Positions 8,139-28,061 of a stretch of 64,000 nucleotides of DNA are shown one piece after another. A program made the position numbers and the translations under genes. The notes beneath the pieces were generated by a model. It made no database searches. It was given only the letters and a program-made list of their open reading frames with translations, and was not told the origin of the DNA. Position 1 is the first letter of the stretch. Each line of letters begins with the position of its first letter. Origin of the DNA: Candidatus Tenderia sp. (GTDB lineage Bacteria; Pseudomonadota; Gammaproteobacteria; Tenderiales; Tenderiaceae); contig JANOSY010000073.1 in NCBI GenBank assembly GCA_031416075.1, forward strand, positions 3,822 through 67,821. Reading direction: 5' to 3'.

Positions 8139-8172
8139 ATATATCTCCTAACAATTCAATATTACTATTCTA

Positions 8173-8859
8173 TTACTCTGCAACAACTTTCCGTATGAAA
8201 TTAAATCTATTCTCTAACTTATAACCAATAAAACTAATGATCACACCCACTACAGCAAAACCTGCAGCCATCACTAAATAAGAGATTAACATTTTATTTG
8301 GATTACGCTCGGCCGCTATCAATCCAGACTGCATTAAATCAATAACACCTACAACATAGATAACAGCTGTATCTTTAAAAAGAGAAACAGCAAAACTTGC
8401 GCTTGCAGGTGTCATTCGACGTAACCCCTGAGGTATCACAACACTAATAAAAACTTGACTCTTTGATAACCCCGTTGCTTGTGCTGCTTCAACTTCACCT
8501 GAAGGTACTGAGGAAAAACCAGCACGAACAATTTCAGCTTGATACGCTGATGAATAGAGTGTTAATGCTATAAATGCACTCAATAATGGCGGTATATTGA
8601 TGCCAATCATGATAGGTAGTAAAAAATGGCACCAGAAGAGCAAAAGTATCAATGGTGTTGATCTTAGTACTTCAATAAATGCTGTGGCACAAAAACCGCT
8701 TATTCTCCCGCCTGCCATTCTCAATAGTGCAAGCGGAACCGCAAACATGAATCCCATTACAAAACAAGATACTGCTAATCCAATATTGATTAGAAGTCCC
8801 CCAGGGGGTCCATCCGGCCATCCGCCGATCATCATGAAACTCAACCAATCAAGACTCAT
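8173..8859 (-). CDS. Polar amino acid ABC transporter permease (HisM/GlnP family).
   Basis: Multi-TM protein, EAA-like loop region ...AQATGLSKSQVFISVVIPQGLRRM. Paired with a second permease and ATPase. Confidence 0.8.
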   Translation of the reverse strand: MSLDWLSFMMIGGWPDGPPGGLLINIGLAVSCFVMGFMFAVPLALLRMAGGRISGFCATAFIEVLRSTPLILLLFWCHFLLPIMIGINIPPLLSAFIALTLYSSAYQAEIVRAGFSSVPSGEVEAAQATGLSKSQVFISVVIPQGLRRMTPASASFAVSLFKDTAVIYVVGVIDLMQSGLIAAERNPNKMLISYLVMAAGFAVVGVIISFIGYKLENRFNFIRKVVAE

Positions 8860-9611
8860 GTTACTGGTACCGATAGAGATGGTTTATTGAGTACATCTTT
8901 AGTACTGTATCGACATAAATTGAGTCTGTTTTCCATTTTATGTGATACAGAACCCAATATTAAAGAGATGACAATATAAAAAATAGTTGCTACAAGCGTT
9001 GCCTCTAACCCTCTAAAACTTAACGACTCTATCTGCTGTGTTGCCCATGTCAGCTCAGTGACACCAATAACTATACATAGTGATGAATTTTTAAAATTAT
9101 GAATGGTTCTATTGGCTAATGCGGGAAGAACAATTCGAATTGCAAGGGGCAATAAACAACATATCCACTGTTGTTTTGATGTTAGTCCACAGCTTTTTGC
9201 CGCCTCTCTTTCACCAGAAGAGATGGCAAGTACGCCATTTCTTAATATATCTGATACATACGTTCCATTATCGATACTTAATGCAACTATTCCGGCTAAG
9301 AGTGCATAACTTCCCCAGCCATGCAAAATACTGCCTAGTGAATCAGGCAGTATCTCTGGAAAAACAAAATAAAAAAACAGTATCCAAAAAACTGCCGGGA
9401 TATGTCGTGCGACGCCGACCCATGCACTGCAGGGCCAGACAAAATATTTCACCGGTGATAGGCGCCCTGAAGCAATAACAATGCCTATCAGTATTGATAA
9501 AATAGTGCTAAAAAAGGCGATAATAAACGTGTGTGCAACGCCATAAAGTAGATAATCCCGATACTCATGACGGGCAATAACAGACCAGTCAAATTCGTAT
9601 GTAAACTCCAT
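8856..9611 (-). CDS. Polar amino acid ABC transporter permease (HisQ/GlnP family).
   Basis: Multi-TM, ...EAAKSCGLTSKQQWICCLLPLAIRIVLPAL... EAA motif. 4-nt overlap with the downstream permease. Confidence 0.8.
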   Translation of the reverse strand: MEFTYEFDWSVIARHEYRDYLLYGVAHTFIIAFFSTILSILIGIVIASGRLSPVKYFVWPCSAWVGVARHIPAVFWILFFYFVFPEILPDSLGSILHGWGSYALLAGIVALSIDNGTYVSDILRNGVLAISSGEREAAKSCGLTSKQQWICCLLPLAIRIVLPALANRTIHNFKNSSLCIVIGVTELTWATQQIESLSFRGLEATLVATIFYIVISLILGSVSHKMENRLNLCRYSTKDVLNKPSLSVPVT

Positions 9612-9620
9612 ATTATCTAC

Positions 9621-10361
9621 TTATACCATCTCTAACATCGATGATTGACGTACACTGTTTGCCAATCTTCCCACCCGATCAGTCGATTGACAGGCCAGAG
9701 TATTACAATCAACTTCAGTTAATGTTCCATTGTTGAGCATGAAAAAACGATTCCCTGTTGCACACGCAAAATCAAGATCATGGGTTACCACTATCTGCGC
9801 TATATTGAGATCTGCAAGTGATTTAATATTTTCTGATACTTCATCACGTAGACGCCAATCCAGTGCTGATGTAGGCTCGTCAAATAACATCACATCCGGG
9901 GACATGGCTAAACACCTTACAATCGCAATTCTCTGTTTTTCTCCACCAGAAAGGCTGTCTGGATATATATCTTTTCTATGAGAAACCGAAAATTTATCCA
10001 TTAGGTCAATAGCAATATTGATGGCTAATTTTTTAGTCAGTTTTTTCACCCTAATTAGCGGTAATGTTATATTTTCCAGTGCGGTCAAGTGGGAAAACAG
10101 ATTGCAATGTTGAAAAACAATACCTACACGTGACCGCAACTCACAAAGATTGATTCCTTCATCATAAAGAGATACTCCATCAATCATAATATCCCCGGAG
10201 TCGATAACCTCCATTCTATTAATCGTCCTTAATAGTGTTGTTTTGCCACTGCCGCTTGGGCCGCATATCATTGCAACCTCTCCACGCTGCAATGATAGCG
10301 TCACACTATTTAGGATTGTTTTTCCTGAGATTATCTTCCCCACTGATTTCAACTCAATCAT
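9621..10361 (-). CDS. Polar amino acid ABC transporter ATP-binding protein.
   Basis: Walker A GPSGSGKTT, signature LSGGEKQRIAIVRCLA, Walker B MLFDEPTSALD. Confidence 0.85.
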   Translation of the reverse strand: MIELKSVGKIISGKTILNSVTLSLQRGEVAMICGPSGSGKTTLLRTINRMEVIDSGDIMIDGVSLYDEGINLCELRSRVGIVFQHCNLFSHLTALENITLPLIRVKKLTKKLAINIAIDLMDKFSVSHRKDIYPDSLSGGEKQRIAIVRCLAMSPDVMLFDEPTSALDWRLRDEVSENIKSLADLNIAQIVVTHDLDFACATGNRFFMLNNGTLTEVDCNTLACQSTDRVGRLANSVRQSSMLEMV

Positions 10362-10379
10362 TGAAAGCTCCTCGAGTTA

Positions 10380-11252
10380 TTAATCGGGTAATACATAGGC
10401 CATATCACCAAACGTATCTGAAGGTAAGCGCGGGCGAGCATTATGTGGCATCGGATAGAGCCCTTTTTCACCAAACCATTTCTGGTATATTCTTTCGTAA
10501 CTACCATCTTTAATCATGTCTTGTAATACAAAGCTCACCGCATCCCGCCATTTACTGTCATTCGGTGGAACACCTATGCCATAAAGACCTGGACTAAAGC
10601 CGGTGCCTACAACCTCAAACTCTGAGGCTGACTCTCCAGCCAATGCCGCTATAATAGGGCTGTCTTGACAAAACACATCTATCTTCCCTTGCTTTAATGC
10701 CAAAATCCCCTCGGCATTTTTTTGAAATGCGATTATCTTTGGTTCTAATTTGCTGTATTTCATGATCTCCTGAGGTGCCGCTGTATAAGCATTTGACCCC
10801 TGATTAACACCAATTTTTTTTCCTGCCAGATCGGATATTTTCTTAAATTCATTTTTTCTCGCATAAAATATCTTGGCCGTCCAAAGATAAGGTGGTTCAG
10901 CATAATCTATCTGCTCTTCACGGCCCCGTGTTTGTGATAGATTTGAAATTGTCATATCAATCTTTCGGTTAGATAGATAGGCTATCCGTGTCTTATTGTT
11001 GACGACAACAAGCTCTACTTTCACACCGAGTTGTTTTCCTATTTCGTTACCTAAATCGACATCGAAACCTGTCCAGTTTCCTTTTTCGTCAATAAAGTTC
11101 ATCGGAGGTGTATCATTACCCGTTCCTATGCGAATAGTGTTTGATTTTTTTACTTGATCAAAAATTGATTCTGCATTAACAATACTTGAGTTAATCACAC
11201 AAGAGAAAAGGCCTATAAATAAAGTGTTTTTAAATAGCTGGTTCAATTTCAT
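10380..11252 (-). CDS. Periplasmic polar amino-acid-binding protein (SBP_bac_3 family).
   Basis: Signal peptide MKLNQLFKNTLFIGLFSCVINSSIVNA. Typical two-lobed binding-protein motifs (GFDVDLGNEIGKQLG...). Its 5' end overlaps the stop of the upstream reductase gene. Confidence 0.8.
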   Translation of the reverse strand: MKLNQLFKNTLFIGLFSCVINSSIVNAESIFDQVKKSNTIRIGTGNDTPPMNFIDEKGNWTGFDVDLGNEIGKQLGVKVELVVVNNKTRIAYLSNRKIDMTISNLSQTRGREEQIDYAEPPYLWTAKIFYARKNEFKKISDLAGKKIGVNQGSNAYTAAPQEIMKYSKLEPKIIAFQKNAEGILALKQGKIDVFCQDSPIIAALAGESASEFEVVGTGFSPGLYGIGVPPNDSKWRDAVSFVLQDMIKDGSYERIYQKWFGEKGLYPMPHNARPRLPSDTFGDMAYVLPD

Positions 11253-12432
11253 AGTGATTTATCTCTTTAATATTATTTTTCGGAAACTCTTTGCTAAACT
11301 TTTCTTTATAAAGAGCCATTTCTTTAGAGTTTTCAATAAATAGATTTTGACATCGCTCTACGCTATCCCCTGTTCCGTTATAAAAAACAAGACCTTTTTC
11401 TGATAAAGGCCCCATCCACTCTCTGCAAAAATTCCATTGGTGCGTCCCTATTTTTAGATTTACCTGTGCAAACGTAAGGTATGCACGTTGACGGATATCA
11501 ATCGATTTAAGATCAACATCCTCAAATTTTGAATAGTAGTGGACACGATGTGGTCTGACTATTTTTATCCACATCTCCCATAAATTTCTCATACTTGGCG
11601 AACTATTATTGTCTGATACCAAGTTACATATTGATGCATCAGGCAACCAGCGATGCGCATATAAAAATGACTCTTGAAACATATCTTGGTGTATTAAATT
11701 TAGTGGTTGATTGGGTGCCACAGTATGCATATCTGAATGGTATCTATCAGTCATCAACCGGGCTAATCCCATCCACTGTTGGTACAATCCGTAACGCTTA
11801 CCCGAGTATCGACCACTCTCCCAATCGCCGATCAAAATAGAGGGTCTAAGAATCAGATAAGGCAATCCACTCTGGGCAACCAACCATTCAGCCTTTCTTT
11901 TTGATGATGTGTAAGAAGTTGGGTCTTTTTCGGGGTCATCATGTAATATCTCTTTAACGTCTCCACTAATATAACCAGAGCTATAGGCTGTAGAAATAAA
12001 TGTAAAGCGCCGTACCCTCAAACGTTTACCGATAGAGAGCATCCATTTTGTTAATTGGATGTTAACCACGTCCAAATCGGCTTCATTGAAATAATCCAGG
12101 CATCCGGCACAGTGCACTATTTCATCTATCTCATAGGGTGTTAATGCCTCCTCAAAATCATCGTCACCAATGTCACTACTACCATTCCAGGGGATAATTT
12201 TTACATTACCATAAACACTCTCTAAAGATTCTCCAAATGCTGATAGCTCATTGTTAAGACGAAACAAAAAATTGTCTATGGATGATGATGCGCGTAATGG
12301 GATAACTATATTCTCTACTCCTGATGACAATAGTTTGGCAGCAATCAGAGTGCCTAGATAACCGCTCCCACCTGTTAGCAGCACTGTATCTGGACGAAAC
12401 TCTTTTGACCTTAGGTCATTAATTGTTTTCAT
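11230..12432 (-). CDS. NAD(P)-dependent thioester-reductase-type SDR (NAD_binding_4, male-sterility-domain-like). It may form aldehyde or alcohol from an acyl/aminoacyl thioester.
   Basis: Rossmann motif VLLTGGSGYLGTLIAAKL near the N-terminus and catalytic YTSSKRKAE (YxxxK). The 400-aa size fits stand-alone thioester reductase domains. Confidence 0.6.
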   Translation of the reverse strand: MKTINDLRSKEFRPDTVLLTGGSGYLGTLIAAKLLSSGVENIVIPLRASSSIDNFLFRLNNELSAFGESLESVYGNVKIIPWNGSSDIGDDDFEEALTPYEIDEIVHCAGCLDYFNEADLDVVNIQLTKWMLSIGKRLRVRRFTFISTAYSSGYISGDVKEILHDDPEKDPTSYTSSKRKAEWLVAQSGLPYLILRPSILIGDWESGRYSGKRYGLYQQWMGLARLMTDRYHSDMHTVAPNQPLNLIHQDMFQESFLYAHRWLPDASICNLVSDNNSSPSMRNLWEMWIKIVRPHRVHYYSKFEDVDLKSIDIRQRAYLTFAQVNLKIGTHQWNFCREWMGPLSEKGLVFYNGTGDSVERCQNLFIENSKEMALYKEKFSKEFPKNNIKEINHYEIEPAI

Positions 12433-12434
12433 CG

Positions 12435-12875
12435 TTACGCCACCTCTTCAGAAGGTAACAATTTCTTTTCAATTTTCTCTGGCTCTGGAATTCCGCCATA
12501 AAATGCAATTTTTCTATTAATAATTAATATAGGAAATATATTAAAACCCTGTGTCGATACAAGGGACTGTATCTGTTCAACCAGTCGATGCTCACTTGGT
12601 TCAAGATCACCACTCTTTATCTTTGACAGCGCTTTTCTGGCATCTGTAATTGAAATTGTCATCACTGAGATATTGGATCCGGAATTCTTTAAGGCAATAT
12701 CAACATTGTTTTTTAGCTTTTCATCACTCTGTGATGCTAATGGGGAGCAACATTTTGCAGAGACAATACCGATCCCGCCTTCATACATTACGGATCTTAA
12801 GTGAATCAGTGCATCCCCACTGTTGCTGTTCCCGCAAAAAAGTTTACATAGCGAATCAAACATATAACCCTCCAT
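12435..12875 (-). CDS. Thioredoxin-fold protein (redox-active disulfide protein-like).
   Basis: Paired cysteines (KCCSP). C-terminal ...FPILIINRKIAFYGGIPE resembles the cis-Pro/beta-strand/GG region of small thioredoxin_3-type proteins. Tightly packed between the permease and reductase with 1-2 nt gaps. Confidence 0.45.
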   Translation of the reverse strand: MEGYMFDSLCKLFCGNSNSGDALIHLRSVMYEGGIGIVSAKCCSPLASQSDEKLKNNVDIALKNSGSNISVMTISITDARKALSKIKSGDLEPSEHRLVEQIQSLVSTQGFNIFPILIINRKIAFYGGIPEPEKIEKKLLPSEEVA

Positions 12876-12876
12876 T

Positions 12877-13800
12877 TCAAAAATTAGGAATTGTCCACTG
12901 CGCGAGAAAACCCAATATCACAGCAGCTGTTACTACAGCGACAATATGAGCAACTATTAGTGGCCAACGAAACAGTCTTAAGAGCAGTATCATTTCAGGC
13001 AAGCTTGTTCCTGCACCAGAGATTAACAAGGCAACCAATGGTCCAGGATCCATCCCTTTCTCTATCAGTGCATAGCCGATAGGCACAATTGCCATAGGCG
13101 ATATGTATAGAGGAACAGCAATCAAGGCAACCAGTGGGATCAAGAAGTAGGGAGGAAAAGTATGATCCAGGTCTGTTAGTATGTTCTCTGGCATATAGCC
13201 GTGTATTAACCCGCCAATAATAATGCCTATCACTAGATAAGGCATGATCTGCCGTAATTCCATACGCGCCGCTCCCCATGAAAAAGAGAGCGCGGTACGA
13301 AATTTTGGGCGAGATACCTCTCCCGTGGAATCCCCCATATAACCTTCTGGAACAGCTACCGTGCCTAAAGGGCGCAGAAAACGTATCATGCCTGTGCGCT
13401 CTACAAGGATGCCGGCTAAAATGGAGAGAAGTGCTGCTGACAAAACAAATATCACAGCACTGCCAAACCCTGGACCACTGACCAATAATATAATGACACC
13501 TTCATTAATCACGGGGGATGAGATCAGAAAAGTAAAACATGAAGCCAAACCAATTTTTGACCTCAACATCCCACTTAGCACAGGTACCGTGGAACATGAA
13601 CAGAAAGGGGTAACGGCCCCACCAATGGCGGCTAATGTTGCGCCGTTCCAAGATGATGCGTTGGCAAGTTTTACCTCTATTGAGCGCCCTAACGAAAATT
13701 GCTGCGCCAGAAATATCAACATTGATATACCCAAAAACAGTATGACCAACATTAAGCCATCCAAAAGAATGAAATTTATAACGTCAACAACTTTATCCAT
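12877..13800 (-). CDS. DUF318/ArsP-type permease with the TPFCSCS thiol motif.
   Basis: Motif AVTPFCSCSTVPVLSG matches the conserved TPFcSCSxxP signature recalled for ArsP organoarsenical efflux permeases and DUF318 two-repeat permeases. About 8 TM segments. Confidence 0.65.
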   Translation of the reverse strand: MDKVVDVINFILLDGLMLVILFLGISMLIFLAQQFSLGRSIEVKLANASSWNGATLAAIGGAVTPFCSCSTVPVLSGMLRSKIGLASCFTFLISSPVINEGVIILLVSGPGFGSAVIFVLSAALLSILAGILVERTGMIRFLRPLGTVAVPEGYMGDSTGEVSRPKFRTALSFSWGAARMELRQIMPYLVIGIIIGGLIHGYMPENILTDLDHTFPPYFLIPLVALIAVPLYISPMAIVPIGYALIEKGMDPGPLVALLISGAGTSLPEMILLLRLFRWPLIVAHIVAVVTAAVILGFLAQWTIPNF

Positions 13801-13850
13801 AACAGCGCTCTTGAACAGGTATTGTTTTTTGTATGTTAAAAATTAGATTA

Positions 13851-14702
13851 TTAACAACACGATTCAGTGGTGGCACTGTTTTTTGTTTGCGCCAAACGTA
13901 AATCGGCAGATGGCATTCCACCATAACTGGACATGCTTGCTATCAGTGGTGTTGTGACTTTTACATCAAACCCAACTTCATCTAACGTTTCAATATAGGC
14001 ATCAAGCGCTTCTATACGAATATCTTCGATGTCTGTACGTATGCTATCCAAACCAATATCACCACAATTCACGCCAAGCTCACCACAAAGAGAGTGGCAG
14101 CTGGTGCTAATCATGCTGAAAAGTTCTGGCATGACACGATGGTGTGCCCAGACAAGGCTGTCATGAACACCATCATAGTCACTGGAGAGCATCTCTTTAA
14201 GCCGTCTGATACCGATGCCAAGATGTTCAATTTCATCGCTCAATATGGACTTTGCAAGGTCGCGTGTATCCGGGTCTGTATCGCGCTGAAGAATTTTATA
14301 CAACACAATGGCCATTGTCTCTGTCATCAGGTCTTGAATAATTAGGCATGCGGCCAGATCCTTTTTTGCGACTGCTGCAGAGAACTGTTTGCGTATATGC
14401 AACCACTGAGGTTCGACAATTCGTTGTTCAACAGGAAAGTCGAGTCTGCGCCCAAGGCTGGAGAGCATTTTGATATGTTTGGTCTCTTCAAAGGCCTGTT
14501 TTGCAGTCTCAATTTTTGAGTTGGTATCTTTCCATAAGGGCACCATCTCGGAATAGTTCTCTACAGCCATAATCTCGCCAGCTACTGCATTTGAGACTAT
14601 GTAGGCCATCAAGTCATAATATCTTTGGTCTTTACCGTGCCGCTGATTGCGCATCTCTTTGACTTCATTTCTATCCAATTCGTTAATATTCACACTATTC
14701 AT
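13851..14702 (-). CDS. Ferritin-like di-iron carboxylate protein (putative oxygenase/oxidase). First gene of the long minus-strand cluster.
   Basis: Two E...ExxH-type segments (AGEIMAVENYSEM... and DEIEHLGIG) spaced as in di-iron four-helix-bundle enzymes. No signal peptide. Confidence 0.5.
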   Translation of the reverse strand: MNSVNINELDRNEVKEMRNQRHGKDQRYYDLMAYIVSNAVAGEIMAVENYSEMVPLWKDTNSKIETAKQAFEETKHIKMLSSLGRRLDFPVEQRIVEPQWLHIRKQFSAAVAKKDLAACLIIQDLMTETMAIVLYKILQRDTDPDTRDLAKSILSDEIEHLGIGIRRLKEMLSSDYDGVHDSLVWAHHRVMPELFSMISTSCHSLCGELGVNCGDIGLDSIRTDIEDIRIEALDAYIETLDEVGFDVKVTTPLIASMSSYGGMPSADLRLAQTKNSATTESCC

Positions 14703-15229
14703 TTCTCTATCTCCGTTATGGGATGCCTGGAAATGTTGGTTCCCCGATTTTTTTGAGACCCGATAATTTGGGCGTGATACATACTCTCATCTGTCAGAGA
14801 TCTGTTAAATAGTACAAATGTACCCATCTGAATATTTATAGTGCCGCGGACTGATGCTATCGACAAACAACATGATGTTTGTAAGAGAAGTATGATTTTT
14901 TTCAATATTAAACTTTAATCCTTCCAATACCTCCATTGACTTGATAATGATCGCCCTCCTTAACCAAAGAAAATACTTTACGGACATTAACTGCCATATG
15001 GCCGCTCTCTTCTGGTTTTTTTATCAAACGGGTATTAGTCTCAGCACCACCTATTGCAGCACCAATACCGTGTCACTTATGTTTTTTCTCATATGTAGTG
15101 GCTGAGGTATATTGGAACTAGCCGCAGTAATCGCGACGACGATAAGATTCCAGTGACCTAACATATTGTATTTATACCTATTAATAGTGAATCAAGGTTC
15201 TGTTAGTTGACAACATCCGCCACCTCACT

Positions 15230-15445
15230 TACAGTGCGCTCCTGCTTCAGGTGTCCTAAGGGCTATCGCCTAATGGATGAAACGGGAAGCCGGTGCGCTC
15301 TGGTAATAACCAGCGCTAACCCGGCACTGCCCCCGCAACGGTAAACGAGTTTAAGGTTCTGCTTACGCCACTGTGTTCTGCACGGGAAGGCGCAAACCTT
15401 GGGAAAAGACCCCCACTCGTGAGTCCGGAGACCGGCCTGCGGCAT
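15230..15445 (+). ncRNA. Cobalamin (adenosylcobalamin) riboswitch in the btuB leader.
   Basis: Conserved core gaaacGGGAAgccGGTGcg...ccGGCACTGCCCCCGCAACGGTAAacg. B12 box GCCACTG at 15367..15373. Downstream gagtCCGGAGACCGGCC element. Sits immediately upstream of a TonB-dependent receptor gene and cob biosynthesis genes. Confidence 0.85.
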
Positions 15446-15586
15446 AAGTTCGGCATTGCGGAGGGCGATGCACCGGCATGTGTGGCCTATTTTTCACCCC
15501 TCCACCCTTGCTATCACTCCTCCTCCATTTGCCATATGGCCTTTAATTATTCAGTTCGTGCCCCGATGTGCACGAAGGAGAGAGAT

Positions 15587-17416
15587 ATGCAGTTGCGTTC
15601 ATTGTCAGCAGCGGTAGCGCTGTTGAGTGCCCTTCCCCTTTACTCCGTTACAGCCATTGCTGCGGATGCGGACGCTGTGATTGTGACAGCAACACGTACA
15701 GCTCAGACCGTTGATGACTCACTTGCATCTGTTAGTGTCATTACTCGTGCTGATATCGAGCGACTTCAGGCCCAATCCTTACAAGATCTGCTACGTGGTA
15801 TAGCAGGTATCTCCGTTGCCAATAATGGCGGCGCAGGTAAATACACTGCACTATTTATGCGTGGTACCGAGTCTGACCACGTACTGGTTTTGATTGATGG
15901 TGTAAAAGTTGGTTCTGCCACCTCAGGCAGCACTGCATTTCAAGACATTCCACTGGCTCAAATAGAACGTATTGAGATTGTACGTGGACCGCGCTCCAGT
16001 CTGTACGGTTCAGAGGCCATTGGCGGTGTGATTCAGATCTTCACCCGTAAAGGAAAAGGCCAGATCACCCCTTCCATGAGTATTGGCGCTGGCAGTTACG
16101 GTACCTACAGCGCCCAGGCGGGTGTCACCGGGGGTAACGATAGTCGCTGGTTCAGTGCCAATCTTAACAGCCTCAATACCAAAGGTTTTAATGCCTGTAA
16201 TGGTTCCGCCATCAGTGGTTGTTATACAGTTGAGCCTGATAAGGATGATTACCACAATGTGGCGGCATCACTGCGTGGTGGATTCCGTTTTGGCAGCAGT
16301 GGTACCGCAGAACTAAATGCTTTACGTAGTGAAAGCGATACATCCTATGATGGATCATTCTCCAATGAGTCATCATCCGTGCAACAGGTATTGGGTGGCA
16401 ATGTCAGTTTTGCGGCAGCACCATCCTGGCAGGTAAGTTTGGCGGCAGGCCAGAGCCGTGATATGTCTGATGGATTTAAGGATGGCAATTTCAAAGGCGA
16501 TTTTAATACTCGCCGCAAAAGTGCTACCTGGCAGAACGACATCACTGTAAGTGACAACAACCTGTTAACAGTCGGTCTGGATCGTCAGCTTGATTTTATT
16601 GAAAGCACCACAAACTTTGCTGTCACCTCTCGTGGCAACAAGGCTGTTTTTGCTCAGTATCAATCTGCGGTCAGTGATACCTTTGATATGCAGCTATCGT
16701 TACGTCGTGATAGCAATGAGCAGTTTGGTAATCAGGGCACTGGCGGTGTGGCATTTGGCGCTGATATCGGCCATTCGATGCGCGCTACCTACGCCTATGG
16801 GACTGCTTTTAAGGCCCCCACCTTTAATGAGCTCTACTATCCTGGATACGGTACTGCCACACTGGTTCCGGAAGATTCGCGCAATATTGAGGTGGGTTTG
16901 GAAGGTAAAACAACACAGGGACACTGGGCTGTTAACCTCTACGAAAACCGCATCAGTAATCTGATTGCCTATGACGCCTCAATTTTTGCCCCTAACAATC
17001 TCGATCAAGCTAACATTCGTGGCATTGAGGCCATCTGTGGTGTTGATATGAACGGTTGGGCCATGAATGCAAACCTGACATTGCTCGATCCTGAGAATCG
17101 TGCCAGCGGTAGCAATTACGGCAAAGTACTACCACGCCGTGCTAAAAAATCGTATCGCCTTGATGCTGACCGTGCTTTAGGTGCGTACCAGGTAGGTGCC
17201 AGTTTACGTGCCGAAGGTAGCCGCTATGATGATCTGGCCAATAACCGTCGCCTGGGTGGCTACGCCACTGTTGATCTGCGCGCCGGTTACGACATCAGCG
17301 ATGATTGGCAGGTTCAGGCACGGGCTGAAAACCTGCTTGATAAAGGGTATGAGACCGCTGCCTTTTATAACCAGCCAGGCCGTAGCCTGTTTGTCACACT
17401 GCGTTACCAGCCGTAA
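15587..17416 (+). CDS. btuB: TonB-dependent outer-membrane vitamin B12 receptor.
   Basis: The ATG at 15587 is preceded by AAGGAGAGAG. Signal peptide MQLRSLSAAVALLSALPLYSVTAIA. TonB box DAVIVTATR. Plug and barrel motifs. Downstream of the B12 riboswitch. The listed ORF start at 15419 lies inside the riboswitch and is not the real start. Confidence 0.85.
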   Translation: MQLRSLSAAVALLSALPLYSVTAIAADADAVIVTATRTAQTVDDSLASVSVITRADIERLQAQSLQDLLRGIAGISVANNGGAGKYTALFMRGTESDHVLVLIDGVKVGSATSGSTAFQDIPLAQIERIEIVRGPRSSLYGSEAIGGVIQIFTRKGKGQITPSMSIGAGSYGTYSAQAGVTGGNDSRWFSANLNSLNTKGFNACNGSAISGCYTVEPDKDDYHNVAASLRGGFRFGSSGTAELNALRSESDTSYDGSFSNESSSVQQVLGGNVSFAAAPSWQVSLAAGQSRDMSDGFKDGNFKGDFNTRRKSATWQNDITVSDNNLLTVGLDRQLDFIESTTNFAVTSRGNKAVFAQYQSAVSDTFDMQLSLRRDSNEQFGNQGTGGVAFGADIGHSMRATYAYGTAFKAPTFNELYYPGYGTATLVPEDSRNIEVGLEGKTTQGHWAVNLYENRISNLIAYDASIFAPNNLDQANIRGIEAICGVDMNGWAMNANLTLLDPENRASGSNYGKVLPRRAKKSYRLDADRALGAYQVGASLRAEGSRYDDLANNRRLGGYATVDLRAGYDISDDWQVQARAENLLDKGYETAAFYNQPGRSLFVTLRYQP

Positions 17417-17500
17417 ATATTGGCACAGTACCCTCCTCTGTTTAGGGAGGGTGTTGTGATCACATTGAAACACACTTACTTTTAAAACAGGCGCGATACT

Positions 17501-18082
17501 ATGTTAACGCTCTCTACCCGACATCAAATTTTTATTGGTCTGTCGCTATTGTTGTTGATGATCACCACCCGTGGTCACCACTTTGCAACACTGGAGCATC
17601 TGCCAAGTGCTTCATGGGCGGTGTTTCTGCTGGCGGGACTCTATCTGCGCCCGGTGTGGGTTTTTCCTGCGCTGTTAGCGTTGGCCGGTTCGCTCGACTA
17701 TGCAGCGATCACCTGGGGTGGTGTCTCTAATTTTTGCGCCAGCCCGGCGTATCCGATGTTACTGCCCGCCTACGGTTCACTCTGGCTGGCGGGGCGCTGG
17801 TATGCCAAACAGTACCATGCTCACTGGAGTACACTTGTACCTGCATCGCTGGCCATTTTATTGGGTGCAACGGTGTGTGAGCTCTTCTCCAGTGGGGGTT
17901 TCTATTTTCTATCAGGCCATTTTGTCGATCCAACACTGACTGAGTTTGGGGCGCGGTTTATTCAATATTTTCCCGGTTCCTTACAATCACTGCTGTTCTA
18001 CATCACCATCGCTGCTGTGATACATCTGCTGTTGGTATCGATACAGAACATCACTACCAAACATAATAGAACCGGGGGTTAA
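17501..18082 (+). CDS. Small polytopic membrane protein of unknown function embedded in the B12 regulon.
   Basis: 193 aa with about 5-6 hydrophobic helices and no recognisable motif. Located between btuB and cobO in the same orientation. Confidence 0.45.
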   Translation: MLTLSTRHQIFIGLSLLLLMITTRGHHFATLEHLPSASWAVFLLAGLYLRPVWVFPALLALAGSLDYAAITWGGVSNFCASPAYPMLLPAYGSLWLAGRWYAKQYHAHWSTLVPASLAILLGATVCELFSSGGFYFLSGHFVDPTLTEFGARFIQYFPGSLQSLLFYITIAAVIHLLLVSIQNITTKHNRTGG

Positions 18083-18086
18083 TGCC

Positions 18087-18692
18087 ATGGATGACACTGA
18101 CAAATCCGTACGCCATCGTAACCGTATGCAGCGTAAAAAAGAGGTGGTGGATGCCTCCATCGCCCGTGCTGATCAAGACAAAGGGTTACTGCTGGTACTC
18201 ACGGGCAACGGCAAGGGTAAATCAAGTTCTGCTTTTGGCATGGTGGCGCGTGCCCTTGGGCACGGTATGCAGGTGGGTGTGGCGCAATTTATCAAAGGGC
18301 GCTCTGATACGGGTGAAGAGGCCTTTTTTCGTCAGCAACCCGGTGTGGTGTGGCATGTGCTGGGTGAGGGGTTTACCTGGGATACACAGAACTTGGAACG
18401 TGATATCGAAACGGCCAATCGTGGTTGGAGCATTGTGCGTGAGATATTGCAAGATCCCACCATCGGTCTGGTAGTACTGGATGAACTCACCTATCCGATC
18501 AAATATGGCTGGCTCGATATTGACATGGTATTGAGTGATCTCGCCGCCCGCCCACCTATGCAGCATGTGGTGATCACCGGTCGCGGTGCAGCCGAGGCGC
18601 TCTGTGATGTGGCCGATACGGTGACTGAGCTCGACGATGTAAAACATGCCTTTCGTGCCGGGGTGCGGGCACAAAACGGGATTGATCTATGA
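18087..18692 (+). CDS. cobO: Cob(I)yrinic acid a,c-diamide adenosyltransferase (CobO/BtuR).
   Basis: P-loop LLLVLTGNGKGKSSSAFG and a conserved CobA/BtuR core. About 200 aa. Confidence 0.9.
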   Translation: MDDTDKSVRHRNRMQRKKEVVDASIARADQDKGLLLVLTGNGKGKSSSAFGMVARALGHGMQVGVAQFIKGRSDTGEEAFFRQQPGVVWHVLGEGFTWDTQNLERDIETANRGWSIVREILQDPTIGLVVLDELTYPIKYGWLDIDMVLSDLAARPPMQHVVITGRGAAEALCDVADTVTELDDVKHAFRAGVRAQNGIDL

Positions 18693-19987
18693 GCCAAGGG
18701 GAAAGGCAGTGCCCTGCACTGTTTATCTCGGCTCCCGCCTCTGGTCAAGGCAAAACCACTGTCACTGCGGCACTGGCGCGCTACCATCGCAACAGAGGAT
18801 GTAAGGTCCGTATCTTTAAAACCGGTCCTGATTTTTTAGATCCGATGATTCTGGAGCAGGCCGCTGGCGCGGCGGTATACCCACTGGATCTCTGGATGGG
18901 CGGCGCTGACCACTGCCGGGCGCTGCTCTATCATGCAGCGGCTGATGCCGATCTGATTCTGATTGAAGGGGTCATGGGGCTGTTTGATGGCTCCTCCTCT
19001 AGTGCGGATCTGGCACGATTTTTTGGCATTCCCGTTATGGCGGTGATCGATGGTTCAGCCATGGCACAAACCTTTGGTGCCTTGGCACACGGCCTTGCTA
19101 CCTATTGTGATGATCTCCCCTTCGCCGGTCTCTTTGCCAACCGGGTTGGCAGTGAAGGCCACTATCAGATGTTGGCCGACAGTGTGCGACCACCGCTTAC
19201 CGCTGTTGGCTGGCTGGCGCATGATGATGAAATCAAACTACCGGAGCGCCACCTCGGTCTGGTGCAGGCAGATGAGGTGGCTGATCTTGAGTCACGTATC
19301 AATCGTGCGGCCGCTGCACTCAACCATGTTCCCGATCAATTGCCACCTGCTGTTACCTTTACCCCTGCCGCTACCCACTCAAACGTCACTCCATCACTAC
19401 AAGGAGTGCAGATTGCCGTGGCCAAGGATGCCGCATTTGCTTTTATCTACCACGCCAATCTTGATCTGTTACGTGCTCACGGTGCCGAGATAACATTTTT
19501 TTCACCCCTGAGTGATACCACACTGCCCGCTGCGGATGCGCTCTATCTGCCCGGCGGTTATCCAGAGTTACACTTAAATACGTTGGCAAGCAATCAACCG
19601 ATGAAAGTGGCAATCACCCAACACCAGATGGAGCAAAAGCCGATCGTTGCCGAGTGTGGCGGTATGCTCTATCTGCTTAACGCACTCACTGCTGTTGATG
19701 GTCAACGGGCGACAATGGTTGGATTATTGCCAGGAGAGGCCACTATGCAAAAGTCGCTCTCCAATATTGGTATGCAGAGTGTGCAACTGCCGGAGGGTGA
19801 GTTGCGTGGCCATACCTTCCACCACTCATCAACAACGTCTGAGATGGTGCCTTTGACCCACTCTTTGCCAGCCCGACATCACGGCAAGCCGGAGGCTGTT
19901 TATCGCAGATCACGGCTGACTGCCTCATATCTGCATCTCTATTTTCCATCCAACCCGGATGCAGCGGTAAAACTGTTTCAACCATGA
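18689..19987 (+). CDS. cbiA: Cobyrinic acid a,c-diamide synthase (CobB/CbiA).
   Basis: N-terminal ATPase ISAPASGQGKTTVTAALAR and a C-terminal glutamine amidotransferase region. 4-nt overlap with cobO. Confidence 0.9.
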   Translation: MSQGERQCPALFISAPASGQGKTTVTAALARYHRNRGCKVRIFKTGPDFLDPMILEQAAGAAVYPLDLWMGGADHCRALLYHAAADADLILIEGVMGLFDGSSSSADLARFFGIPVMAVIDGSAMAQTFGALAHGLATYCDDLPFAGLFANRVGSEGHYQMLADSVRPPLTAVGWLAHDDEIKLPERHLGLVQADEVADLESRINRAAAALNHVPDQLPPAVTFTPAATHSNVTPSLQGVQIAVAKDAAFAFIYHANLDLLRAHGAEITFFSPLSDTTLPAADALYLPGGYPELHLNTLASNQPMKVAITQHQMEQKPIVAECGGMLYLLNALTAVDGQRATMVGLLPGEATMQKSLSNIGMQSVQLPEGELRGHTFHHSSTTSEMVPLTHSLPARHHGKPEAVYRRSRLTASYLHLYFPSNPDAAVKLFQP

Positions 19988-20643
19988 GCCGCTACAGCGA
20001 TGCTGAAATTGCCGCACTCTACCGTGTGATCCGTAAACGACGCGACATGCGCCACTTTCTGCCAGACCCTATCGATCCAGAGATGCTGAACCGACTGTTA
20101 CATGCGGCACACTGTGCGCCCAGTGTTGGACTGATGCAGCCGTGGCGTTTTGTCCGTGTAACTGATCATGCGTTGCGCCAGCAAATACATCAGCTCGTGG
20201 AAGGCGAACGTATTCAAACTTCTACCGCGCTGAATGAGCGTAGCGATGCCTTTATGAAACTCAAGGTTGAAGGCATTTTAGAGTGTGGTGAATTGATTGT
20301 GGCGGCCTTGATGGAGCAGCGAGAGCAGCACATCTTTGGCCGTCGCACATTGCCAGAGATGGATATCGCCTCTGTGGCCTGTGCCATTCAAAACCTCTGG
20401 CTGGCCGCTCGTGCCGAAGATATCGGTATGGGCTGGGTCTCGCTCTTTGATCCTGTTACTTTGGCCACACTACTCAACATGCCAGCAGGGAGTAAACCGG
20501 TGGCCATCCTCTGCATCGGTCATGTAAAACAGTTCTACTCTGCCCCCATGTTAGAACTGGAAGGTTGGGCCAAGGGTCGACCATTGGAAGAGCTGCTTTT
20601 TCATAACAGCTGGGGCAATACTATGACGGAGAGTTCAACATGA
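19984..20643 (+). CDS. bluB: 5,6-dimethylbenzimidazole synthase (BluB, nitroreductase fold).
   Basis: RRDMRHFLPDPIDPEMLNRLLHAAHCAPSVGLMQPWRFVRV matches the BluB/nitroreductase signature. Located in the cob operon. Confidence 0.85.
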   Translation: MSRYSDAEIAALYRVIRKRRDMRHFLPDPIDPEMLNRLLHAAHCAPSVGLMQPWRFVRVTDHALRQQIHQLVEGERIQTSTALNERSDAFMKLKVEGILECGELIVAALMEQREQHIFGRRTLPEMDIASVACAIQNLWLAARAEDIGMGWVSLFDPVTLATLLNMPAGSKPVAILCIGHVKQFYSAPMLELEGWAKGRPLEELLFHNSWGNTMTESST

Positions 20644-21452
20644 CATTTAGCAGTGCCACAGGTCCGCAACGGATTATCTGCCTGACGGAAGAGACCACCG
20701 AAACACTCTATTTATTAGGCGAGCAGGATCGTATTGTTGGCATCTCCGGTTACACAGTGCGCCCCCCGGAGGCGCGCAAAAACAAACCCAAAGTCTCCGC
20801 CTTTACCAGCGCCAAGATAGACAAAATTTTAGCGCTTGAGCCAGATCTGGTATTGGGTTTTTCCGATATGCAGGCGGATATCGCCGCCCAGCTGGTCCGT
20901 GCTGGCGTGCAGGTACACATTTTTAATCAGCGCAGCATTGCCGAAATATTTGAGATGATTTATATGGTGGGGGCCATGGTGGCAGCTCCGGCTAAAACGG
21001 AGCAGCTGATCACTCGATTAAAAACTGAGTTACAACAGATTAAAGAGTCCGCCAATCTCTTGCCACGCCGTCCATTGGTCTATTTTGAAGAGTGGAACGA
21101 TCCACTGATCTCCGGTATTCGCTGGGTATCAGAGCTGATTCATATTGCCGGTGGTAAAGACTGTTTTGCTGATCTGGCTACCTCTGCGGGGGCCAAAGGA
21201 CGCATTATTGCCGATGGCAACGAAGTGGTTCGTCGTGCCCCCGACATCATCATCGGCTCCTGGTGTGGCAAACGGTTTCGGCCCGATGAGATCAGGGCCC
21301 GTGCCGGTTGGCAGGCAATCCCTGCCGTGCGTGATGGTCACATCTACGAAATCAAATCCCCCGACATTCTGCAACCTGGCCCCGCAGCGCTGACTGATGG
21401 TGTGCAGCAGATTCACGCCTATATTCTACAGTGGGCTGCCACTCAGCCGTGA
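20640..21452 (+). CDS. Periplasmic cobalamin-binding protein (BtuF-like, class III SBP).
   Basis: RIICLTEETTETLYLLGEQDRIVGISGYT N-terminal motif typical of BtuF/FecB-type binding proteins. No cognate BtuCD in the window. Confidence 0.7.
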   Translation: MTFSSATGPQRIICLTEETTETLYLLGEQDRIVGISGYTVRPPEARKNKPKVSAFTSAKIDKILALEPDLVLGFSDMQADIAAQLVRAGVQVHIFNQRSIAEIFEMIYMVGAMVAAPAKTEQLITRLKTELQQIKESANLLPRRPLVYFEEWNDPLISGIRWVSELIHIAGGKDCFADLATSAGAKGRIIADGNEVVRRAPDIIIGSWCGKRFRPDEIRARAGWQAIPAVRDGHIYEIKSPDILQPGPAALTDGVQQIHAYILQWAATQP

Positions 21453-22336
21453 TCACTGTGTTCATCGTCATAGCAGCACTACTGCTGGATGCGGCGTTAG
21501 GAGAGCCTCGCCGTTACCACCCACTGGTCGGTTTTGGCCGACTGGCACAGGCGGTTGAACAACGACTCTATGGTGACTCTTTGATACGCGGCGCAGTTGC
21601 AATAACAATATTGCTACTGCCGCTGGTAGTCATCACGATGATGATCTCTATACATTGGTTCGTTGAAGTCATACTGCTCTACCTGGCCCTCGGTTGGAAG
21701 AGCCTGGGTGAACACGCCAACCGTGTTGTTACGGCCTTAGATACCAATGATCTTCCCGCCGCCCGACAACGGGTTGGCGATATGGTGAGCCGCGATACCA
21801 CCACGCTGAATGAGAGTGATGTTGCCAAGGCAACCGTTGAGTCGGTACTGGAAAATGGTAACGATGCCGTCTTTGGTGCCCTCTTCTGGTTTGTGGTGGC
21901 CGGTGCACCTGGTGTGGTTCTGTTTCGCCTCAGCAATACACTTGATGCCATGTGGGGTTATCGTACTCAACGATATCTACGTTTTGGGTGGGCGGCGGCG
22001 CGGCTGGATGATCTTTTAAATTACATCCCGGCACGACTCACAGCACTCAGTTACGCACTGGTAGGCAACTACTCACGTGCCATGCGCTGTTGGCGACATC
22101 AAGGCAGTAGCTGGAAGAGCCCCAATGCCGGCCCGGTAATGGCGGCGGGGGCTGGCAGTATTGACGTACAACTGGGCGGTACAGCCACTTACCAGGGCAC
22201 TCAACAACAACGCCCGCCACTGGGTGAAGGTGATCCCCCCACAACTGAACACATTGGTGCGGCACTGCAACTGATTAAACGTGCCCTGCTCCTCTGGGTA
22301 ATTGTGTTGTTACTGGGCGGTTGGTTTGTCTCTTAA
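21431..22336 (+). CDS. cbiB: Adenosylcobinamide-phosphate synthase (CbiB/CobD).
   Basis: IAALLLDAALGEPRRYHPLVGFGRLA N-terminal motif and a membrane protein of about 300 aa. The start is an alternative GTG codon. Confidence 0.85.
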   Translation: MGCHSAVITVFIVIAALLLDAALGEPRRYHPLVGFGRLAQAVEQRLYGDSLIRGAVAITILLLPLVVITMMISIHWFVEVILLYLALGWKSLGEHANRVVTALDTNDLPAARQRVGDMVSRDTTTLNESDVAKATVESVLENGNDAVFGALFWFVVAGAPGVVLFRLSNTLDAMWGYRTQRYLRFGWAAARLDDLLNYIPARLTALSYALVGNYSRAMRCWRHQGSSWKSPNAGPVMAAGAGSIDVQLGGTATYQGTQQQRPPLGEGDPPTTEHIGAALQLIKRALLLWVIVLLLGGWFVS

Positions 22337-23351
22337 TCTTCAGACAACACCTCCTCATCACGGTGGCAAACTACGTGCTGCTGCTGAACAGTACGCGATT
22401 CCATTAGCAGAGTGGCTTGATCTCTCCACCGCTATCAACCCCAACGGTTGGCCCGTGCCCACTATCCCGGCAGAGTGCTGGGCGCGTCTGCCAGAAGCGT
22501 GCGATGGCCTGGAAGAGGTGGCACGTCTCTACTACGGTGCAACATCCTTACTCACGGTAGCCGGTTCACAAGCCGCCATACAGGCGCTGCCACAACTGCG
22601 CCCCCCTTCACGGGTAGGCCTGCTTGCCCCGGCCTATGCTGAACATGGTTACGTCTGGCAGCGTAGTGGTCATACTGTTGTCTCTTATTCTATAGATGAG
22701 ATAGAACGTGCCGTGGCTACATCTGATGTTCTGATACTCATCAACCCCAACAATCCAACCGGTGTGCGATTTAGCCAGGCGCAGCTGCTTGGCTGGCACA
22801 AAATAGTTGCCCGCCGGGGTGGCTGGTTAATTGTGGATGAGGCCTTTATGGATAGCACCCCTGACGAGAGTCTCTGTCACCATAGCCATCACACCGGTTT
22901 AATTGTTTTACGATCGTTGGGAAAGTTTTTTGGCCTGGCAGGGGCACGCATCGGCTTTGTCTGTGCAGCACCACCACTACTGATGCAACTCAGCCACCTG
23001 CTTGGGCCTTGGGCCACTAACGCCCCGGCCCGTTATGTTGCCACCCTGGCCTTACAAGACAAGGTGTGGCAACAGCAGGCACAACAACAGCTACAGCTGG
23101 CCAGCATACAGATGCAACAACTGTTGCGGGAACACCATCTACCCCCCGCAGGAGGCTGCCCCCTATTTCAATGGATACTCAACCCTGATGCAGAAAAAAT
23201 ACACCAACACCTAGCCAAACAGGCCATTCTCACACGGCTCTTTATCGAACCCATGAGTCTGCGTTTTGGACTACCAAAAAATACCGCTGATTGGCAACGA
23301 CTAGCAATAGCGTTAACCTCGATCCCCGGGTTAAAGCAGCAACAGCGATAA
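22302..23351 (+). CDS. cobD: L-threonine-O-3-phosphate decarboxylase (CobD/CobC, PLP aminotransferase class I/II fold). The start is uncertain: the listed TTG is likely too far upstream.
   Basis: [15 protein letters not shown]...[11 protein letters not shown] near the N-terminus is the conserved CobD opening. PLP-enzyme fold and length. Confidence 0.8.
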
Positions 23352-23365
23352 ACAGAAGAGATAAT

Positions 23366-24430
23366 ATGAACAGACCCACCGAGATCGAATGGCTTAATAT
23401 TCCCGTCGCCACACCTAACAGCACCACCCAACGGGCAGCCGAAGCACGCCAGGCAGTACTGACTAAACCGCCAGGGGCGTTGGGTCGCCTGGAGGAGATC
23501 GCCATTCGTCTTGCTGCACTGCAAGGGACCACCACACCCAGTGTTGAGCAGATACAGATTACCGTTTTTGCCGGAGATCATGGCATCGCTGCAGAGGGTG
23601 TCTCTGCCTTTCCCCAGGCAGTCACCGCTGAAATGGTTAAAAACTTTGCCCGTGGCGGCGCCGCCATCAGCGTTGCTGCCCGCAAACTCGGTGCAGCGCT
23701 GGAGGTAATTAACCTCGGCACCGCATTTGATACAGGACCACTGGAGGGGGTAAAAAATTATGCACTTGGCCCCGGCACAGCTAACTTCGCCGTTGAAGCC
23801 GCCATGAGCGAACATCAACTGGCCTGTGCACTGGCCGCTGGCCGCCACGCTGTCGAACGGGCCAAGCTCAACGGTGCGCAGCTTTTTATCGGTGGTGAGA
23901 TGGGCATCGCCAATACCAGCGCAGCCACCGCACTCGCCAGCCTGCTACTGAATATCGCCCCAACACAACTCACAGGACCAGGCACAGGGCTAGATGCTAC
24001 CGGCGTCACCCACAAAGCAGCAGTCATTGAAGCTGCATTAGCGCTGCATAAACCGTATATCCAGTCACCACTGGAGGGACTGCGTAGAGTGGGTGGATTT
24101 GAAATCGCCGCACTTGCCGGGGCCTACATCAGCTGTGGCCACATAGGCATCCCTGTATTGGTGGATGGTTTTATCAGCAGCAGCGCAGCACTTGTCGCAA
24201 GCCAGCTCTGCCCCGCTGTAAAGGAGTGGCTACTCTACTCCCACACCTCTGCGGAACCGGGACATCGATTAATTTTAGAATCACTCGACGCCCTCCCACT
24301 ACTCGATCTTGGCATGCGGTTAGGTGAAGGCAGTGGTGCAGCCATTGCAGTACCATTACTACGCATGGCCTGTGATCTACATAATGAGATGGCAACCTTT
24401 GCCGAAGCAGCAGTGTCAGAAAAGTCCTGA
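23366..24430 (+). CDS. cobT: Nicotinate-nucleotide--dimethylbenzimidazole phosphoribosyltransferase.
   Basis: [34 protein letters not shown] and [11 protein letters not shown] motifs. ATG at 23366, in frame with the listed 23291 ORF. Confidence 0.9.
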
Positions 24431-26219: not shown

Positions 26220-28061
26220 TTAAGCAGTAACACTCTCACCCAGATAAACAGACTGCTCATCATACGCTGGAAGAGTCACTATAAAAGCGGCCCCTTTACC
26301 GGGTTCACTCTCAATCTCCACCGTACCTTGATGATCTCTAATGATGCCAAACGTGACAGAAAGTCCCAACCCAGTCCCTTTGCCTGCTGCCTTAGTGGTG
26401 AAAAAAGGCTCAAACACACGTGCTTTCACCTCATCGGTCATGCCAGGCCCACTATCAGCGACACGGACTTCCACCCTACCTGAAACCAACAGACAACTGC
26501 TTATTCTCACTTCACCCGGCACACCATCCATAGCCTGTTGAGCGTTAATCATAAAGTTAATTAATGCCTGCTTTATCTGGTTACCATCGGCATAAATTTC
26601 CGGCACCTGATTATCCAGCACCTTCACTATTTTTACCTGATTAACACTTAACTGGTGATCGACTATGGCAATAGTCTCCTCAATAATCAGGTTAACATCG
26701 GTTGGTTCTTTCTTAACATCCTCTTTGCGAGCAAATTTCATCAAATTTTCGATAATATCTTTACAGCGTTTTGTCTCTTTTTCTATAACAACAAGGTTGT
26801 TATATACTGGGCCATCTTTTTCGACCTTACGCTTTGAAAGCTGTGCATAGCCAAGGATTCCCGCCAGTGGATTTTTTATTTCGTGGGCAATACCTGCCCC
26901 CAGCTGGCCAAAAGCGGCCATTTTTTCAGATTGAACAAGGGCAGATTGTGCCGATTCCAAAGCCACTTCACGACTATGCAACTCCGTCGTCATAGTATTA
27001 AATGAACTAGCCAGAGCACCTAATTCATCCCGTGACTCCACATCAAGTCGTATATCAAATCCACCTTGCCCAACTGCCTTGGCCGCTTCGGATAGTCGTT
27101 CAATCGGTCTGGTAATACGTTGTGCCCATATAATCCCTAACAACGCAGCAAGAATTAGCAGCCCTAACGCAACCCAAAGAAGGTTTCCCAGCAGTTCTCG
27201 TGCCGTCAGATATGCAGCACTTTTAGGCACTTGAACGCCCGCTATCAGCGAACCATGTTTGACACGGGCACGGGCATATCCGGCAACAACCGGCTCCCCT
27301 TTTACCACATACTCCACTATGGTGGCAGTACTCTGCATATCTGTCAGAACCTTCAGTTTTTCACGAGCCTCTAGTGGTATCCAATCTACTATAGTGTGTG
27401 CCACAATCAGATTCAGATCTTTATGTGCCAAAATGGAACCCTTATTATCCATTAAAAAAGTCTCAAAAACTGAAGATCGATTCACTACATTTAATAGCCT
27501 TTCCATGCGAACCATGGCAGAGACAATATGGGAATTACCCGTTTCAGGTGATTTTATTAATATGGCAATAGTTAATGTGGGTAGCGATTCATTTAGAGTC
27601 GAGTTAACTATGTAGCCCTCTTCATCAATAACCTTATCACCAGGCAAGGGGTTAGATTGACGATAATTGGATAATTCTTCTCTACTTAATCCAGCCTTTG
27701 TTAAAGAATCACTATCATAAATGGTTACCTGCTCTTTACCATTCTCATAAAGCGAAACTGAAACAAATTCCCCAATATCCTCAAATAGCCGCTGCAAAAG
27801 AATATTTTTCTCATTCTGTGGCAAACCAGAATCGATCATTATTCTTGAAAACAGACTCAACTTCTCTTCATACCCAAGATGCAAAGAGTAAGACTCTTCA
27901 GCTACATGCTGAGCAATAATAGAGGTCATATCATAAATGTAGGTTGTTTTATCAGTATGAAATAGGGCAGCCATCGTATACGTTATGATGCTCACAACCA
28001 GTGTAATCACTAGTAGCAATATACTCATCAATTTAAATCTGATGGGAAAACGTAAGTTCAC
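26220..28061 (-). CDS. Sensor histidine kinase with an N-terminal TM segment, a periplasmic Cache-like sensor, a second TM/HAMP region, HisKA and HATPase_c domains.
   Basis: H-box AGIAHEIKNPLAGILGYAQL and G-boxes DSGPGM / GKGTGLGLS. Two hydrophobic segments flank about 280 aa. Its start overlaps the FecR-like gene stop by 1 nt. Confidence 0.85.
   Translation of the reverse strand: MNLRFPIRFKLMSILLLVITLVVSIITYTMAALFHTDKTTYIYDMTSIIAQHVAEESYSLHLGYEEKLSLFSRIMIDSGLPQNEKNILLQRLFEDIGEFVSVSLYENGKEQVTIYDSDSLTKAGLSREELSNYRQSNPLPGDKVIDEEGYIVNSTLNESLPTLTIAILIKSPETGNSHIVSAMVRMERLLNVVNRSSVFETFLMDNKGSILAHKDLNLIVAHTIVDWIPLEAREKLKVLTDMQSTATIVEYVVKGEPVVAGYARARVKHGSLIAGVQVPKSAAYLTARELLGNLLWVALGLLILAALLGIIWAQRITRPIERLSEAAKAVGQGGFDIRLDVESRDELGALASSFNTMTTELHSREVALESAQSALVQSEKMAAFGQLGAGIAHEIKNPLAGILGYAQLSKRKVEKDGPVYNNLVVIEKETKRCKDIIENLMKFARKEDVKKEPTDVNLIIEETIAIVDHQLSVNQVKIVKVLDNQVPEIYADGNQIKQALINFMINAQQAMDGVPGEVRISSCLLVSGRVEVRVADSGPGMTDEVKARVFEPFFTTKAAGKGTGLGLSVTFGIIRDHQGTVEIESEPGKGAAFIVTLPAYDEQSVYLGESVTA

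Follow-up and report, generated by a model that had tools for sequence, protein, structure and literature searches.

In Escherichia coli, corrinoids admitted through the outer-membrane receptor BtuB are taken from the periplasm into the cytoplasm by BtuCD-BtuF, a type II ABC importer. BtuM was predicted in 2003 to be an alternative inner-membrane B12 transporter, from the co-localization of its gene with btuB (Rodionov et al., 2003, cited in PMC6072759). The family has since been characterized structurally and functionally through BtuM of Thiobacillus denitrificans (BtuM_Td; Rempel et al., 2018, Nat Commun 9:3038; PMC6072759). The two systems do the same job, but BtuCD-BtuF is unrelated to BtuM in sequence, architecture, and energetics. 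BtuM_Td spans the membrane with six helices and folds like an ECF S-component (PDB 6FFV), and solitary BioY provides a precedent for an S-component that acts without its module (Rempel et al., 2018). BtuM homologues are reported almost only from organisms that lack an ECF module; BtuM_Td itself is functional in E. coli, a host that has none. In an E. coli strain devoid of metE, btuF, and btuC it rescues B12-dependent growth, and it sustains growth on hydroxocobalamin as well, for which decyanation is not required (Rempel et al., 2018). BtuM_Td binds cobalamin base-off, with the invariant and essential Cys80 as axial cobalt ligand and H28, D67, Y85, and R153 as conserved pocket residues, and it decyanates cyanocobalamin (Rempel et al., 2018). 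Its gene co-localizes with btuB and btuR; btuM genes usually adjoin btuR, whose product has been proposed to act as a metabolic trap for the imported corrinoid (Rempel et al., 2018). Even for BtuM_Td, the transport mechanism and its energetics are hypothetical.

In a 64-kb stretch of DNA from an uncultured gammaproteobacterium (the window, meaning the whole stretch analysed), we found a clear homologue of BtuM, as judged by sequence, predicted fold, pocket residues, and genomic context. Its ORF begins with ATG, ends with a TAA stop codon at 18080-18082, and comprises 193 codons. The ORF belongs to a compact operon headed by a cobalamin riboswitch (Table 1), in the order riboswitch, btuB, btuM, cobO, cobB, bluB, BtuF-like gene, cbiB, cobD, and cobT. 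A sequence-only reading of this DNA had placed a 193-aa ORF between btuB and cobO inside a B12-riboswitch regulon. Its coordinates and length were exact, and the riboswitch at the head of the operon, which scores well beyond the RF00174 gathering score of 31.5, bears out the regulon. It is also the sole Rfam element found in the window.

The genes 3′ of the riboswitch are separated by short gaps or overlap at their stop and start codons. The btuM ORF lies 84 nt beyond the end of btuB, and 4 nt separate it from cobO. Just 5′ of the riboswitch is a promoter-like site (15207..15235), a consensus match only; consensus scans for promoters and terminators returned matches at the level of shuffled controls and are uninformative on operon structure. 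The mechanical btuB ORF starts at 15419, within the riboswitch, and the likely start, chosen by reading the translation, is the methionine of MQLRSLSAAV, which opens a signal peptide. The name of the cobD/cobC gene is based on genes at the same position in loci L083 and L084, which carry Pfam Aminotran_1_2. The btuB-btuM gap contains a 7-bp G+C-rich inverted repeat (17431..17451, plus strand; CCCTCC-TCTGTTTA-GGGAGGG) just 3′ of the btuB stop codon and with no T-run after it. Such a repeat could affect RNA stability or act as a partial attenuator, and thereby fix the ratio of btuB to btuM expression.

Table 1. Features of the window and, where a locus is named, of other genomes
Feature	Position	Strand	Evidence
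Cobalamin riboswitch aptamer, operon head	15232..15454	+	Rfam RF00174, 103.6 bits, E = 7.9e-25, full-length model match
btuB, TonB-dependent outer-membrane corrinoid receptor	15587..17416	+	Pfam Plug 5.3e-32, TonB_dep_Rec_b-barrel 5.7e-37
btuM homologue, predicted six-helix inner-membrane corrinoid transporter/decyanase	17501..18082	+	PDB 8c7p/8ovv match
cobO/btuR, ATP:corrinoid adenosyltransferase	18087..18692	+	Pfam CobA_CobO_BtuR 7.9e-61; NCBIfam NF004637 272 bits
cobB/cbiA-type cobyrinic acid a,c-diamide synthase	18689..19987	+	Pfam GATase_3 + CbiA
bluB, 5,6-dimethylbenzimidazole synthase	19984..20643	+	NCBIfam TIGR02476 BluB, 254 bits, cutoff 150
Leaderless BtuF-like protein, Peripla_BP_2 fold, predicted cytoplasmic	20640..21452	+	Pfam PF01497 2e-49
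cbiB/cobD, adenosylcobinamide-phosphate synthase	21431..22336	+	Pfam CobD_Cbib 5.5e-94
Aminotransferase-type gene, probably cobD/cobC threonine-phosphate decarboxylase (name inferred)	22302..23351	+	ORF position
cobT, nicotinate-nucleotide:DMB phosphoribosyltransferase, last operon gene	23291..24430	+	Pfam DBI_PRT 4.5e-126
Ferritin-like, Pfam 'long-chain fatty aldehyde decarbonylase'	13851..14702	-	71 bits, cutoff 28
ArsP_1 permease	12877..13800	-	Family match
146-aa protein, no family	12435..12875	-	ORF
NAD_binding_4 'male sterility'/fatty-acyl-reductase-like protein	11230..12432	-	Family match
Leaderless BtuF-like copy, L081	8001-8813		
Leaderless BtuF-like copy, L083	8001-8798		
Leaderless BtuF-like copy, L084	8001-8810		
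Leaderless BtuF-like copy, L119	7944-8792		
Leaderless BtuF-like copy, L162	about 7990-8801		

The closest relatives of known structure identify the protein. In a phmmer search against the PDB, residues 2-181 of 193 aligned with residues 3-182 of the chain in 8C7P (chain A) and 8OVV (E = 1e-47, 165.8 bits). Foldseek likewise placed both entries first, with 8C7P as top match (E = 5e-12, query and target TM scores of 0.82 and 0.88, 46% identity) and an overall identity to the BtuM_Td structures of 46-47%. We identify 8C7P as BtuM from the entry description given in the fold search, where the two entries are labelled 'Tagless BtuM in complex with' cyanocobalamin or hydroxycobalamin. PDB entry 6FFV was absent from the matches of the PDB sequence search, and a full-text literature search on the code 8C7P found no paper; 8C7P and 8OVV suffice for the identification. 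Further BtuM structures were released in 2024.

The window protein thus resembles BtuM_Td in size (~190 aa), in identity over nearly the full length, and in fold. It also shares the cysteine ligand and the pocket: HMMER aligns H27, D66, C79, Y84, and R152 position for position with H28, D67, C80, Y85, and R153 of BtuM_Td, and all five residues are invariant in 26 homologues that are 55-87% identical to the window protein. Cys79 is therefore the predicted cobalt ligand, as the counterpart of Cys80. A gene position beside btuB and btuR/cobO, with no ECF module or BtuCD nearby, completes the resemblance. The differences are a C-terminal tail, the host, which is another and uncultured gammaproteobacterium, and a leaderless BtuF-like gene that the window operon also carries (a feature read for the window operon alone).

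An AlphaFold2 model, built on a 26-sequence alignment (mean pLDDT 82.6, pTM 0.82), has six long helices and one short helix, in keeping with the five to six helices proposed earlier. A Kyte-Doolittle window detects only three to five hydrophobic segments, fewer than the six helices of the model; the helix count was taken from the model because BtuM helices are just moderately hydrophobic. Scans with Pfam, NCBIfam, and PHROGs yielded no usable family model for the protein, and a match to PHROG 36116 (E = 0.052) was dismissed as chance. The absence of a matching model in these collections explains why the sequence-only reading saw no recognisable motif, a statement that holds for Pfam and NCBIfam but fails for the PDB, where BtuM matches. 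Its description of the protein as uncharacterised has likewise been overtaken, the BtuM family having been published in 2018 (Rempel et al., 2018), whereas its suggestion of an S-component-like inner-membrane component that takes up corrinoids in place of BtuCD coincides with the published description of BtuM.

We are highly confident that the 193-aa protein is a six-helix inner-membrane protein of the BtuM family that has the ECF S-component fold and works alone, without EcfT/EcfA or BtuCD. Transport, ligation by the cysteine, and decyanation are known from published work on BtuM_Td and may be attributed to the window protein by analogy, as follows. BtuB would carry corrinoids across the outer membrane into the periplasm, where BtuM would bind them base-off in a periplasm-facing pocket with the Cys79 thiolate as axial cobalt ligand, a ligation that would strip cyanide from cyano-corrinoids. 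BtuM would move the corrinoids across the inner membrane without ATP, probably through S-component toppling and facilitated diffusion. CobO/BtuR would adenosylate the imported corrinoid and so trap it, and the products of the remaining operon genes would remodel or complete the cofactor. We infer that the genes are co-transcribed in this organism, in which case the riboswitch 5′ of btuB would silence every gene of this salvage and remodelling operon once B12 is abundant. At 46-47% identity, the substrate range (cobalamin, cobinamide, and other cobamides) could differ from that of BtuM_Td.

Decyanation by BtuM_Td was shown directly, and its transport activity was deduced from growth complementation rather than from assays of purified components (Rempel et al., 2018). 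The protein might thus chiefly process corrinoids on the periplasmic face, as a decyanase or base-off converter, with translocation left to another protein. This reading is very unlikely, given that BtuM_Td alone rescues E. coli without btuF and btuC and does so on hydroxocobalamin as well, where there is no cyanide to remove (Rempel et al., 2018), and that neither the operon nor the window contains another candidate inner-membrane corrinoid transporter.

The latter point comes from a screen of all substantial ORFs in the window for transmembrane content and ABC motifs, with candidates scanned against Pfam. Neither a FecCD (BtuC-type) permease nor a cognate ATPase was found in the 64-kb window, in agreement with the earlier observation that BtuC and BtuD are missing from it, and no EcfT/CbiQ or ECF-type ATPase was present there. 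Of the two ABC systems in the window, one is a MacB/FtsX exporter-type pair (4610..7650) and the other a polar-amino-acid-type importer with SBP_bac_3, two BPD_transp_1 proteins, and an ATPase (8173..11252). The other polytopic proteins are the ArsP_1 permease, DsbB, a cation-diffusion facilitator, and CbiB. A BtuCD or ECF module could be encoded beyond the 64 kb. As BtuB and BtuM together constitute a complete published route for B12, no BtuCD is needed, and the apparent uptake gap in the window is closed.

This limited view of the genome bears on a second alternative, namely that the protein is a conventional cobalamin ECF S-component like CbrT, in need of an EcfT/EcfAA' module encoded elsewhere in the genome. 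ECF S-components (FolT, CbrT, and solitary BioY) are also small six-helix vitamin-binding membrane proteins, and FolT chains are the next-best structural matches after BtuM (probability 0.87 and 0.69, TM 0.43-0.48). These similarities are weak, with S-component matches in general at E values of 0.5-2, TM scores of 0.4-0.5, and 10-16% identity, against the strong match to BtuM. The window protein has no detectable sequence similarity to S-components, matches no S-component family in Pfam or NCBIfam at E ≤ 1, and is accompanied by no ECF T or A component within the window; cysteine-cobalt ligation and decyanation are not among S-component features. Together with the near-absence of ECF modules from organisms that have BtuM and the activity of BtuM_Td in E. 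coli (Rempel et al., 2018), these observations make an S-component of the conventional kind highly improbable. Cobalt-ion transport for B12 synthesis, an option also raised by the sequence-only reading and compatible with a small polytopic protein in a B12-riboswitch operon, can be given almost no credence, because the homologous structures hold cobalamin rather than free cobalt, every corrinoid-pocket residue is conserved, and the genomic linkage is with btuB and late salvage genes (cobO, cbiB, and cobT) rather than with cobaltochelatase genes.

The BtuM family is sizeable. At least 1179 protein clusters are related to the 193-aa protein at E ≤ 1e-3, and relatives are encoded in at least 426 species genomes. 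Most hosts are gamma- or betaproteobacteria, such as Nitrosomonas, Methylobacillus, Methylophaga, Sedimenticola, and Cycloclasticus. Beyond the Proteobacteria, homologues are found in Nitrospira/Nitrospirales and in Nitrospina, whose copy is 36% identical. The closest locus belongs to the uncultured gammaproteobacterial MAG ND3_Bin_17, with 93% identity and an identical gene order throughout.

Genomic context was counted for the best 80 genome loci of the at least 426, using tblastn with the operon proteins of the window. Among these 80, the upstream region is visible in 72 loci, and in 64 of those the homologue comes immediately after a btuB gene on its own strand. In 61 of 78 loci the next gene downstream is cobO, and 74 of the 80 contain one or more cob genes. 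In an Rfam scan of 12 sampled diverse btuM loci, every one had an upstream cobalamin riboswitch in the same orientation, usually before btuB and in two cases directly before btuM. The sequence-only reading had named homologues unlinked to B12 riboswitches or cob genes as evidence that would count against it; the linkage to cob genes (74/80) and to riboswitches (12/12) is the opposite of that. Two BtuM loci each have a back-to-back pair of divergent cobalamin riboswitches, L064 (2948-3136, minus strand; 3482-3714, plus strand) and L018 (5608-5745, minus strand; 5813-5967, plus strand). In both loci, each riboswitch controls one arm of a divergent B12 uptake/salvage locus.

The lack of a Pfam or NCBIfam model also explains why BtuM appears in databases as 'hypothetical protein', the name of nearly all BtuM clusters, or wrongly as 'cobalamin ABC transporter', the name of a few. 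The latter misnaming is exemplified by ALP52895.1 of Candidatus Tenderia electrophaga and by the molecule name of PDB 8C7P. With BtuM found in environmentally important groups that include Nitrosomonas, Nitrospira, Nitrospina, methylotrophs, and sulfur oxidisers, a BtuM family model would sharpen predictions of B12 auxotrophy and salvage.

The operon contains a second component of interest, a BtuF-like (Peripla_BP_2) gene, whose presence the sequence-only reading had reported correctly and whose product it had taken to be periplasmic. The ATG of this gene (20640) overlaps the bluB stop codon and no upstream extension of the ORF is possible. The N-terminus of the product, MTFSSATGPQRIICLTEE, is hydrophilic and without a signal peptide. 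A hydrophobic N-terminal segment was likewise found in none of its 120 closest homologues, so that a periplasmic location does not hold for this protein or these relatives. The product is only a distant relative of true BtuF, matching PDB 1n2z at E = 2.7e-12, and scores 61 bits with the NCBIfam BtuF model, for which the cutoff is 234. A canonical periplasmic BtuF was rejected on these grounds, namely the missing signal peptide and the score below the cutoff. We conclude from the sequences that the BtuF-like protein is a distinct and presumably cytoplasmic paralogue. The puzzle of a BtuF without BtuCD, posed by the earlier reading, vanishes, since the protein is a leaderless paralogue and not a stranded periplasmic BtuF.

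The 120 closest homologues are 69-96% identical to the BtuF-like protein, are mostly 265-271 aa long, and carry the NCBI name 'cobalamin-binding protein'. Their hosts are Gammaproteobacteria, Nitrospirales, Nitrospina, Nitrotoga, and Alphaproteobacteria, and more distant metagenome loci of the subfamily show about 64-73% identity. The subfamily falls among the class III binding proteins and is very conserved; an N-terminal motif, RIVCLTEETTETLY, with an invariant cysteine (Cys14) is common to it. As in the window, the gene is found in btuB-btuM-cob operons of Nitrospina, Thiodiazotropha, and Nitrotoga. It is present in only 10 of the 80 best BtuM loci. Downstream of the leaderless orthologue, the metagenome loci L119 and L162 carry a second Peripla_BP_2 gene, this one with a classic signal peptide, and after it FecCD and an ABC ATPase, which together form a complete BtuFCD. 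Nine sampled BtuF-like loci showed no cob genes, and none of the nine had a riboswitch. In L112, the one of the nine for which housekeeping neighbours were identified, the BtuF-like gene stands alone among pmbA, purC, and coq7, near a 6S RNA. A strict BtuM-specific partnership was rejected in view of the 10 of 80 BtuM loci and the occurrence of the gene both beside BtuFCD and alone; a role as the transporter's own binding protein was also rejected, as the leaderless protein is an extra paralogue beside a signal-peptide BtuF in L119 and L162. The BtuF-like gene is thus often, not always, linked to corrinoid uptake loci and is independent of the type of inner-membrane importer.

One tentative possibility, which we think somewhat doubtful, is that the BtuF-like protein is a cytoplasmic corrinoid carrier that receives its substrate from the importer, BtuM here and BtuCD elsewhere. 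Such a carrier could act as a sink for facilitated diffusion or hand the substrate to CobO or CbiB. If so, it would be a bacterial counterpart of the intracellular B12 chaperones. A literature search for a leaderless or cytoplasmic BtuF, or for a function of the BtuF-like subfamily, found nothing in the library covered, which is no proof of novelty.

Two further regions of the window, both on the minus strand, are of separate interest. Divergent from the riboswitch is a four-gene cluster (11230..14702) whose members are listed in Table 1. Its combination of a reductase and a decarbonylase-like protein, surprising for a gammaproteobacterium, is reminiscent of alkane synthesis in cyanobacteria. 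The other region (28061..35539) encodes a 1965-aa protein with Big_1/invasin, SdrD_B, DUF11, and Glucodextran_B domains and an internal OmpA domain, after which come a FecR/Glucodextran_B protein, a HAMP histidine kinase, and a response-regulator diguanylate cyclase. The arrangement suggests a large surface adhesin served by a c-di-GMP signalling module of its own.
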